DNA from: Promethearchaeota archaeon
GTDB taxonomy: Archaea; Asgardarchaeota; Lokiarchaeia; Sigyniarchaeales; SOKP01
Length of the DNA: 12,601 nucleotides
NCBI GenBank assembly: GCA_048941015.1
Contig: JBHLNZ010000082.1
Coordinates: 1 to 12,601, forward strand
Direction of reading: 5' to 3'
Part shown: positions 1,556-7,258 of the stretch, piece after piece
Layout of the letters: every line of letters begins with the position of its first letter
Position numbering within the stretch: the first letter of the stretch is position 1
Translations under genes and position numbers: made by a program
Notes under the pieces: model-generated
The model's database searches: none
What the model was told of the DNA's origin: nothing
What the model saw: the letters and a program-made list of their open reading frames with translations, nothing else

Positions 1556-1617
1556 AAAAAAAAAGATAGGGTTCGATAACTCGCAAAATGAGATTTTTAC
1601 TTATTACTATTTCCTAT
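1556..1617 (-). ncRNA. Candidate structured RNA element downstream of csp1 (3' UTR motif or independent sRNA), copy 1
   Basis: Minus-strand AUAGG-AAA-UAGUA-AUAA-GUAAAA-aucuca-UUUUGC-gag-UUAU-CGAAC-CCUAU-C-U9. Folds as a long hairpin and shares ordered blocks with 6519-6585. Confidence 0.55.
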
Positions 1618-1634
1618 TTATTATTTGTTATTTC

Positions 1635-1644
1635 TGATTTATAA
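1635..1644 (-). promoter_or_regulatory. Conserved decamer TTATAAATCA, 13 nt after the csp1 stop (TATA-like or protein-binding site)
   Basis: An identical decamer lies 11 nt after the csp2 stop (6604-6613). Confidence 0.4.
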
Positions 1645-1957: not shown

Positions 1958-1973
1958 TTTTTCATTTTAAAAA

Positions 1974-1997
1974 AATTCTTTTATCTCTAAAAGAATT
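1974..1997 (-). promoter_or_regulatory. 5' leader hairpin of csp1
   Basis: Perfect 10-bp inverted repeat AATTCTTTTA-tctc-TAAAAGAATT, 16 nt upstream of the ATG; a counterpart lies upstream of csp2. Confidence 0.6.
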
Positions 1998-2021
1998 AGT
2001 AATAAAAAATGATGCATCTCA

Positions 2022-2038
2022 AATAAGTTTTTACTTTT
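2022..2038 (-). promoter_or_regulatory. Putative BRE/TATA promoter of csp1
   Basis: Minus strand AAAAGTAAAAACTTATT; 14/17 identical to 6966-6982 and at nearly the same distance (25 vs 24 nt) from the leader hairpin. Confidence 0.5.
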
Positions 2039-2180
2039 AGTAGGTATCAGAAAATTATAATGCTTTCAATAAAATGATGATAAGAATGAAAAAAAGGTAT
2101 TTTAAAAAACCAAAAAATTATATCATTAGATAATTAACGTAAATTATATTTTAAGTTCTTACATAACAGTATGATTAAAT

Positions 2181-6034: not shown

Positions 6035-6421
6035 ATGCCTAAAATGAAAAAAAAAGCCAAGAAAGGAAGAAGAACCTATGGACCAAATCCAACACCAGAA
6101 ATAAGGCGCGTAAAAATGCCATATAGAAAAAATGGGGAAATGTTTGCCCGGGTAACCGATATATATGGCCAAGATCGGATGGGCGTCTATTGTGAAGATG
6201 GAAAATATCGAATGGGACGGATTCGGGGAAAAATTAAAAAAAGAGTTTGGATAAGGAAAGGAGATTTGGTCGTAATTAATCCATGGGAGTTTGAGACAGA
6301 AATTGAAGGCCAAAATGAAAAATGTGAAATATCTTGGAGATACTTAAGACATGAAATTTCTTGGTTGCAACGTAAAGATTTAATTCCAGAAAATCTGGAT
6401 TTGAATAGTATTCCCCTTTAA
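6035..6421 (+). CDS. eif1a: Archaeal translation initiation factor aIF-1A
   Basis: GEMFARV, CEDGKYRMGRIRGKIKKRVWIRKGDLVVINPWEF and WRY...WL are eIF-1A family signatures; basic N-terminal tail. Confidence 0.95.
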   Translation: MPKMKKKAKKGRRTYGPNPTPEIRRVKMPYRKNGEMFARVTDIYGQDRMGVYCEDGKYRMGRIRGKIKKRVWIRKGDLVVINPWEFETEIEGQNEKCEISWRYLRHEISWLQRKDLIPENLDLNSIPL

Positions 6422-6439: not shown

Positions 6440-6518
6440 ATCATAAAATTATTTATTTTGAACTTATCAGCGTATAGTAAACTTATATAAAACTTAATTT
6501 GAATATTCTAAAACATAT

Positions 6519-6585
6519 TAAAAAAAATTAAGGTTCGATAATAATCGTAAAAACTTTTTACAAAATATTATTTACTACTTTTATT
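6519..6585 (-). ncRNA. Candidate structured RNA element downstream of csp2, copy 2
   Basis: Minus-strand AAUAA-AAG-UAGUA-AAUAAUAUUUU-GUAAAA-agu-UUUUAC-GAUUAUUAU-CGAAC-CUU-AA-U8; same blocks and fold as copy 1. Confidence 0.55.
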
Positions 6586-6603
6586 GAATTATTTCTTTTT
6601 TCT

Positions 6604-6613
6604 TGATTTATAA
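6604..6613 (-). promoter_or_regulatory. Conserved decamer TTATAAATCA after the csp2 stop
   Basis: Identical to 1635-1644. Confidence 0.4.
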
Positions 6614-6624
6614 AAACCATAGAA

Positions 6625-6891
6625 TTAAAATCGGAAATTTCCTCTTCTATTATATGGATTAGGTGGAGCCTTTTCAGTAACGACTACGTTACTCGCTTGA
6701 GGTCCTTTCTGACCCTCAACTATTTCAAACTCAACTTTATCATTTTCGTTTAGAGTTTTGTATTCATCATCTCTACCAGCTAATGCGGTATAATGAACAA
6801 ATACATCTGTTCCTTCTTCAGAATTTATAAATCCATAGCCCTTACGGCTATTAAACCATTTTACTGTTCCTTTTACCAATTTTAAAACCAA
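6625..6891 (-). CDS. Cold-shock domain protein (csp2), TTG start, short Arg/aromatic tail
   Basis: [30 protein letters not shown]; 63/77 residues identical to csp1 up to KAPP (hand count); tail [11 protein letters not shown]. Confidence 0.95.
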
Positions 6892-6910
6892 TTTATTAAT
6901 TTTCTATTGA

Positions 6911-6942
6911 AGTTCTTTACTTTTTTTTATTTATAAAGAACT
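6911..6942 (-). promoter_or_regulatory. 5' leader hairpin of csp2
   Basis: Perfect 9-bp inverted repeat AGTTCTTTA-N14-TAAAGAACT, 19 nt upstream of the TTG. Confidence 0.6.
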
Positions 6943-6965
6943 AATAAAAAAAAGAGTTTAAGAAT

Positions 6966-6982
6966 AATAAACTTTGACTTTT
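6966..6982 (-). promoter_or_regulatory. Putative BRE/TATA promoter of csp2
   Basis: Minus strand AAAAGTCAAAGTTTATT; matches 2022-2038 at 14/17 positions. Confidence 0.5.
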
Positions 6983-7258
6983 TTGAACTTTTTTATAAAA
7001 AATATTGTTGAAAAACAATCATTGGACTATATGTACCTTTTTTAATTGAATTTACTTCAAGAAGTTAATTCTTTTGAAGATTTATAGTGTATCTATTAAT
7101 CAATTAGTTCATAAATTAATCATGAATGACATCGAATTGATATAATTTTTTTCCTTTAACCTAAACTAAGAAATATAACCGTTTGAATTCCATTTAGAAT
7201 TTGAATTTAATAATTACAAAAAAATTAGAGGTGTATCAAAATTAATTTAAAAAATATA

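Follow-up and report, generated by a model that had tools for sequence, protein, structure and literature searches.

A conserved hairpin and U-tract behind the cold-shock-domain genes of a Lokiarchaeal family: a candidate 3'-end module of csp mRNA

The window, that is, the stretch of 12,601 nucleotides analyzed here, is the whole of a 12.6-kb contig (JBHLNZ010000082.1) from a Promethearchaeota archaeon of about 30% G+C. Two paralogous cold-shock-domain genes lie 5 kb apart on its minus strand, csp1 at 1658-1957 and csp2 at 6625-6891. The csp2 gene has 88 codons and ends in a stop codon at 6627-6625, and its product matches the Pfam CSD family with an E value of 1.9e-27. Because TTG and ATG interchange as the first codon among csp2 orthologs, the start of csp2 is probably the TTG at 6891-6889. 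On the plus strand, the gene for the translation initiation factor aIF-1A (6035-6421) runs convergently towards csp2. Two further csp-like genes of the same genome lack the element described below. Downstream of one of them (G000:C123:51721-51960, minus strand) there is a T9 run with a hairpin unrelated to the element (z −2.3 at 10°C); downstream of the other (G000:C109:88357-88560, plus strand), T8 alone comes 22 nt beyond the stop codon.

The original prediction, made from the letters of the window, was that the interval 6519-6624 holds a second copy of a structured RNA element also present downstream of csp1. This interval covers the full 3' UTR of csp2, upstream box included, and so reaches beyond the hairpin alone, and every letter cited for the second copy, its palindrome included, is present, the motifs lying on the minus strand. 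The complete module (6520-6624, minus strand, as are all positions of it that follow) consists of a box, a spacer, a hairpin and a U-tract. The box, TTATAAATCA, is located at 6613-6604, 15 nt past the stop codon and 30 nt ahead of the hairpin base. The hairpin (6580-6530, about 50 nt) is composed of three helices with nearly all A-U and G-U pairs, G-C pairs accounting for 2 of 17. The basal helix, P1, pairs AAG (6578-6580) with CUU (6530-6532) and retains three of the five pairs of the family, in which the consensus of the 5' arm is AUAAG. An internal loop made of UAGUAA (6572-6577) on the 5' side and CGAAC (6533-6537) on the 3' side separates P1 from P2, in which AUAAUA (6566-6571) pairs with UAUUAU (6538-6543). 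The apical stem-loop P3, UUGUAAAA-AGU-UUUUACGA (6545-6563), has an 8-pair stem (6563-6556/6552-6545) that encloses GUAAAA-AGU-UUUUAC and contains, read on the plus strand, the exact palindrome GTAAAAA-C-TTTTTAC (7+1+7, 6547-6561). Past P1 there are two A residues and then the U8 tract (6520-6527), the presumed transcription stop, which begins 2 nt past P1.

The module behind csp1 (1556-1644, minus strand) comprises a box at 1644-1635, a hairpin at 1617-1566 and a U9 tract at 1564-1556. As predicted, the two copies differ in stem length but have identical UAGUA and CGAAC loop strands: P2 of copy 1 is shorter (AUAA/UUAU), and its P1 is AUAGG/CCUAU in place of AAG/CUU. The pattern TAGTA-N15-45-ATCGAACC occurs in the whole 3.59-Mb genome only at these two copies.

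On its own, copy 2 does not stand out in calculated folding energy, and the case that its structure is more than chance comes from other genomes. Its energy at 37°C is −5.9 kcal/mol (z −1.1), and a fold of equal quality is predicted for the other strand. The full three-helix fold is the predicted minimum-energy structure at 4-15°C, a range within cold-sediment temperatures, whereas at 37°C only the inner stems form. A generic terminator scan that requires at least three G-C pairs did not call the copy 2 hairpin. When compared with intrinsic terminators, copy 2 has no G+C-rich stem of 5-14 pairs closed by a loop of 3-8 nt but does have the immediate U-tract. An archaeal terminator has at least five consecutive U residues at the 3' end of the transcript, and the sequence of copy 2 has U8 where that end is predicted to lie.

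To place copy 2 among its relatives, csp homologs were fetched from 40 of 41 related genomes and their 3' flanks were inspected. The same element stands behind nearly all of the close csp paralogs, often in tandem arrays. For a covariance model (R1), a three-helix structure was drawn by hand on 36 distinct copies; the model matched at both copies of the window, which supports the claim that the second is homologous to the first. Copy 1 (1554-1631) scored 76.6 bits, and copy 2 (6516-6592, minus strand) scored 59.8 bits with an E value of about 1e-6 to 2e-5, which places it among the weaker members; the source genome has matches at these two csp copies only. Within the genus, 57 matches were distributed over 37 of 42 genomes, and across a sample of the order, 74 of 101 genomes of one family (nine genera) had matches, one to three per genome, and none of 19 genomes of three sister families did. 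The linkage to csp is nearly complete: of 113 matches in the DNA analyzed, 111 follow a same-strand csp reading frame at a distance of 14-122 nt, and the other two, both on one contig, had the lowest scores. Among 80 further loci from named Promethearchaeota records, all 49 matches are located directly behind csp and on the csp strand, and there was no match behind bacterial csp genes or behind the most distant archaeal csp clade. Copy 2 shares the setting of the model, being directly past a same-strand cold-shock-domain gene and followed by a U-tract of at least seven residues. A search of both strands of the window against Rfam 15 gave no match up to E = 1, and no description of the element was found in the literature searched. 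From these sequence comparisons, we conclude that the element is an uncatalogued csp 3' module of a Lokiarchaeal family, of which copy 2 is a member. Given that no catalogue matches it today, it deserves an entry among the RNA families.

Several observations on the distribution stand apart from this conclusion. In the genus, two or three csp genes arranged in tandem, each with its own 3' module, are found in many genomes; examples are loci L009 (three csp units approximately 570 nt apart), L008, L014, L025 and L026. A contig labeled 'Candidatus Nanopelagicaceae bacterium' (L146, DATKTW010000167.1) has a csp gene 90% identical to csp2 and a full-scoring element (86 bits); it is probably of Lokiarchaeal origin and was misassigned to a bacterial MAG. 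One submitter has given Hod-, Thor-, Odin- or Hermodarchaeota labels to several more records that bear the element. For hairpins preceding the U-run of unrelated csp genes of the sister families and of the third csp gene of the source genome, the result was mixed (z −2.4 to +1.0, n = 9).

One possible explanation for a second copy is that it is a passive, functionless remnant of csp gene duplication, and the paralogous csp genes 5 kb apart, like the tandem csp arrays of relatives, are what such a history would leave. We therefore give the degree of conservation in pairs of csp units with a protein identity of 70-90%. The identity of the hairpin was 0.76-0.86 in these pairs, compared with 0.48-0.55 at csp fourfold-type synonymous sites, and the 60 nt past the U-tract showed an identity of 0.57-0.62, which is the level of shuffled sequence (0.59). 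Because the flanks and the synonymous sites are near background and the hairpin is not, the element has been kept by selection and is no slowly fading duplicate. The element also occurs in nine genera and in three clades of csp, with proteins as little as 59% identical. This family-wide distribution, together with the conservation of the hairpin, refutes the remnant explanation, which we now find barely conceivable.

The original prediction had taken the change in stem length around a constant loop as the mark of structural selection, as opposed to passive decay, and the pairing statistics agree with it, as do the identities given above. The pair counts were taken from the model-fitted alignment and lean towards structure for that reason. 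Over the 19 pairs of the three helices, 93.4% of the cells pair, compared with 40-60% when the partners are slid by 1-3 columns; changes on both sides are seen somewhere in the family at 15 of the 19 pairs, and none of 500 shuffles reached the observed values. Folding energies, which are independent of that alignment, lead to the same result. The mean minimum free energy of 91 unique hairpins at 10°C was −19.9 kcal/mol, with a mean z of −2.76 against dinucleotide-shuffled controls, and 69 of the 91 fold as a single unbranched hairpin closed at both ends. On a structure-blind MAFFT alignment of 36 copies, RNAalifold returned no consensus structure, and pair counts on the structure-blind MAFFT alignment showed weak covariation, because divergent types of the element are misaligned there. 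The apical stem of some copies contains short internal duplications (GTAAAAAAGTAAAAAA, TTTTGCGATTTTGCG).

The substitutions also tell on which strand, and as which nucleic acid, the element is recognized. In the paired columns there are 189 G.U combinations as opposed to 33 A.C, an A.C being what a G.U on the opposite strand would appear as. Furthermore, the A-rich 5' arms vary from A to G, whereas the U-rich 3' arms are nearly invariant, as selection on an RNA helix predicts: a U-to-C change breaks an A-U pair and an A-to-G change does not. The asymmetry between the arms and the excess of G.U indicate an RNA on the csp sense strand and not a DNA operator. An operator had been raised as an alternative reading of the perfect 7+1+7 palindrome of copy 2 (6547-6561), where a dimer of a DNA-binding protein might sit in the convergent intergenic region. 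The palindrome is, however, peculiar to copy 2: its second pair is U.G in 57 and U-A in 33 of 105 copies, and most orthologs are imperfect, mostly reading GUAAAAA...UUUUUGC with a U.G wobble. The element, moreover, keeps a fixed csp orientation and 3'-end position whichever gene comes next. With the palindrome unconserved, the operator reading is very unlikely. The U-tract lies 1-2 nt past P1 throughout, with T in 99-105 of 105 rows over its eight columns. Both copies are thus homologous members of a csp-strand RNA that pairs, is conserved family-wide, is strictly linked to csp and is followed by an invariable U-tract.

The internal loop is less uniform than the two window copies suggest. Among 105 distinct copies, the 5' strand reads U or A, then A (98), G (58; A in 22 and U in 22), U (87), A (97) and A (90), and the letters of the 3' strand are C (93), G (71; U in 23 and A in 9), A (105), A (87) and C (52, the position being C or U). 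The claim that the internal loop stays the same therefore holds for the two copies of the window and not across orthologs, in which the G residues are present in 55% (5' side) and 68% (3' side) of copies and variants such as UAUUAA/CUAAC and AAAUAA/CGAAU are common. Free variation of this loop in orthologs had been named in advance as evidence against the element; it is seen at the two G positions, whereas A17, U19, A20, A23, C121, A123 (105/105) and A124 are kept. By its sequence, the loop is constrained yet not invariant.

The kept letters bear on the possibility that the hairpin is chiefly a protein-binding site, whose internal loop (perhaps with the box) docks a regulator, be it Csp, an Sm-like protein on the U-tail or another RNA-binding protein. 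The loop letters are about as conserved as the stems and more so than the apical loop (A17 in 98, U19 in 87, A20 in 97, A23 in 90, C121 in 93, A123 in 105 and A124 in 87 of 105 copies), and even degenerate members that lack P2 have kept UUAUCGAAC as their 3' strand. The signature of the loop E or sarcin-ricin (bulged-G) motif is AGUA opposite GAA in a set orientation. Copy 2 has 5'-AGUA-3' opposite 5'-GAA-3' between helices in this canonical orientation, but the family as a whole differs from the motif, in that the strict AGUA/GAA signature is kept by only about a third of the members and the two defining G residues are both present in 42 of 105. The UAUUAA/CUAAC variant could simply form three Watson-Crick pairs. 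In addition, pure structural selection also predicts a near-invariant U-rich 3' arm. We consider a chiefly protein-binding role quite unlikely on this balance. By inspection, we rejected a kink-turn (the site of L7Ae), which calls for a bulge of three nt and then tandem sheared G.A pairs, as neither orientation of UAGUAA/CGAAC offers the GA/GA arrangement, and likewise a C/D-box reading of the internal loop. In many copies, the word AAAUCU (or AAAUCA) is found both in the box and on the 5' side of the apical loop (GUAAAAAUCUC/G; columns 52-56 of family alignment A2). One RNA-binding protein could bind at both of these single-stranded copies of the word.

The box upstream of the hairpin has the family consensus TATAAATC-T/A-AC-AAAA. 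At least seven of the eight letters of TATAAATC are found in 87 of 109 orthologous UTRs, compared with 15% of shuffles, and the best-kept letters are AAATC. The core of the copy 2 box (6612-6605) has all eight letters and is positioned 30 nt before P1 of the model (family range tested, 26-31). The distance from box to hairpin base is 28-29 nt in 56 of the 87 UTRs. In UTRs in which the distance from stop codon to box is shifted from the usual 15-17 nt (to 1, 7, 19, 24 or 29), the hairpin distance is still 27-28 nt in 8 of 13. The survival of the hairpin spacing in spite of such shifts shows that box and hairpin belong together.

Such a fixed spacing raises the possibility that the box is a TATA-type promoter and that the hairpin with its U-tail is an sRNA of about 60 nt, which would share the csp terminator; a terminator role for csp read-through is compatible with this. 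The word TATAAATC is all A/T except for the final C. Archaeal TATA elements usually lie about 30 nt before the transcript start, and the spacing from box to hairpin base matches this geometry. The csp promoter itself is laid out alike, with a TATA-like TTTATTAT approximately 31 nt before the 5' leader hairpin. On the other hand, the best-kept part of the box, AAATC, includes a C, the 'TATA' half accepts G or C (TGTAAATC, TACAAATC), and upstream of the box the UTRs have no conserved purine-rich, BRE-like stretch. TATA-like words are also common in a genome of 30% G+C, and the element is never found away from csp, as a self-sufficient gene would occasionally be expected to be. Attempts to set a promoter register gave little guidance: the upstream regions of tRNA genes (16 tRNAs called only) showed no clear register for the box, and the positions of TATA-like words before ORFs had no peak, because start positions are uncertain. 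We regard an independent sRNA as possible but doubtful.

The 5' side of the csp genes (6892-7010 and 1958-2080, minus strand) is also conserved family-wide. It contains a TATA-like AAAATTTATTAT, a leader hairpin approximately 31 nt further on, and then TTGGTTTTAAAATTGG. The leader hairpin is TTCTTT...AAAGAA, and its variants ATCTTTC/GAAAGAT and GTTC/GAAC still pair. The csp2 leader (6892-6942, minus strand), comprising the hairpin loop and the sequence following it, is similar to the segment of the 3' UTR that extends from the box as far as the hairpin base (6571-6618, minus strand), with a local alignment score of 43 compared with 20.6 ± 3.7 for 1000 shuffles; copy 1 has no comparable resemblance between leader and 3' UTR. 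The likeness could be due to local conversion between the gene ends or to chance in A-rich sequence. Base pairing between leader and 3' UTR was rejected, as the energies for cognate (−8.95 kcal/mol), non-cognate (−8.2) and shuffled pairs (−8.1, sd 2.8) show. A small downstream ORF in the 3' UTR was rejected as well: an ATG is present in only 38 of 110 UTRs, the frames are mostly of two codons, and they differ from one another.

The original prediction had also set the element between csp2 and aIF-1A. The convergent aIF-1A gene is indeed there, but its link to the element is incidental, since only 18 of 104 csp units with the element have a convergent aIF-1A gene behind them, and we rejected a functional tie to aIF-1A for this reason. 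The convergent pairing does recur across three csp clades, with as little as about 25 nt from element to aIF-1A end in some loci, and the csp and aIF-1A products are both small OB-fold RNA binders.

What, then, does the module do? We think it most probable (roughly 0.6) that it is a csp-specific, cis-acting 3'-end module of the csp2 mRNA, in which a U-tract terminator is joined to a protective hairpin. Archaeal RNA polymerase stops at U-tracts to which aCPSF1 binds and at which it assists, and a hairpin is not required; a Lokiarchaeal aCPSF1 behaves likewise, and a long U-tract predicts high termination efficiency in archaea (PMC8716108). Because archaeal termination needs no hairpin, a terminator role alone does not explain the hairpin. 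Nor is the combination of hairpin and U-run the general terminator type of this genome. The first run of at least seven T residues after long ORFs comes at a median of 24 nt past the stop codon, and the 50 nt ahead of these runs have about the folding energy of shuffles (−9.5 versus −9.3 kcal/mol), so that a general role was rejected. On these figures, the structured tail of 100 nt is special to csp and does not reflect a local style of terminator.

Under the 3'-end module reading, csp2 transcription would continue for approximately 100 nt beyond the stop codon and end in U8. Since the hairpin abuts the U8 tract, it would form the 3' terminus of the transcript, where it is expected to shield the mRNA from 3'-to-5' decay and may raise the efficiency of termination. 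The module thus most likely sets the end point and the lifetime of csp mRNA, as far as its sequence and position suggest. A plain stabilizer hairpin, however, leaves the upstream box of fixed spacing and the conserved letters of the internal loop unexplained.

The hairpin is weak and is predicted to form fully only in the cold, from which we infer that protection may depend on low temperature. Proteins of the cold-shock family melt RNA structure. Protection of the mRNA would rise at low temperature and fall as RNA-melting Csp accumulates, and the outcome would be cold induction with negative feedback. An mRNA end that is stabilized by cold and destabilized by Csp is a reasonable mechanism within this model. 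One could envision a complete switch at the csp 3' end of Asgard archaea, in which a weak A/U hairpin forms only in the cold and is melted by the encoded Csp, so that temperature and feedback together set mRNA life and Csp level, and in which the box may also launch an sRNA that titrates Csp; in this full form, the proposal is speculative and rather improbable. Public RNA runs (two metatranscriptomes and one further, doubtful run) shared 5-6% of words with the locus and covered only the conserved coding part of csp, with a likeness below 95% that points to other organisms.

Very little is known of how Asgard archaea, which among prokaryotes are the nearest relatives of eukaryotes, control their mRNAs after transcription. 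The usual view is that archaeal terminators consist of a U-tract alone; the csp family has a selected 3' hairpin and a box in nine genera. The closest formal likeness is to bacterial Rho-independent terminators and 3' stabilizing stem-loops, in which a hairpin is also followed within 1-2 nt by a U-run at the end of the unit, and like the bacterial 3' stem-loops, the csp hairpin is expected to guard the 3' end from exonucleases. It differs from the bacterial intrinsic terminator in its length of 50 nt, its three helices and its almost exclusive use of A-U and G-U pairs, and also in that the archaeal polymerase stops without a hairpin (PMC8716108). With archaeal aCPSF1/FttA terminators it shares a tract of U8-12 at the 3' end, which for csp is the predicted one, but those described have no conserved upstream hairpin (PMC8716108). 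Unlike ordinary terminators of any kind, the csp element is conserved in sequence over nine genera and tied to one gene family.

In this last respect, it is reminiscent of the 3' stem-loop of animal histone mRNAs, a conserved hairpin specific to one gene family that marks where the mRNA ends and governs its stability. The likeness, a family-specific hairpin at the 3' terminus, is by analogy only; neither sequence nor processing machinery is related. The bacterial sRNAs DapZ and MicL are derived from 3' UTRs, are internally promoted and share the terminator hairpin with the mRNA; the csp module resembles them in having a promoter-like box in the tail of the upstream gene, and no archaeal example of an internally promoted 3'-UTR sRNA was found in the literature searched. 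The module is an easily cloned test case for whether structures at the 3' ends of archaeal mRNAs set stability or termination efficiency. Finally, the 5' UTR of Escherichia coli cspA contains a thermosensor and a cold box, which act on translation and on stability at the 5' end. The csp2 element resembles it as a structured UTR RNA, predicted to be temperature-sensitive, on a cold-shock gene, and it differs from it in having no Rfam match and in being positioned at the 3' end. It also offers a case in which to ask whether csp expression in sediment archaea is tuned at the 3' end, as opposed to the 5' end in bacteria.
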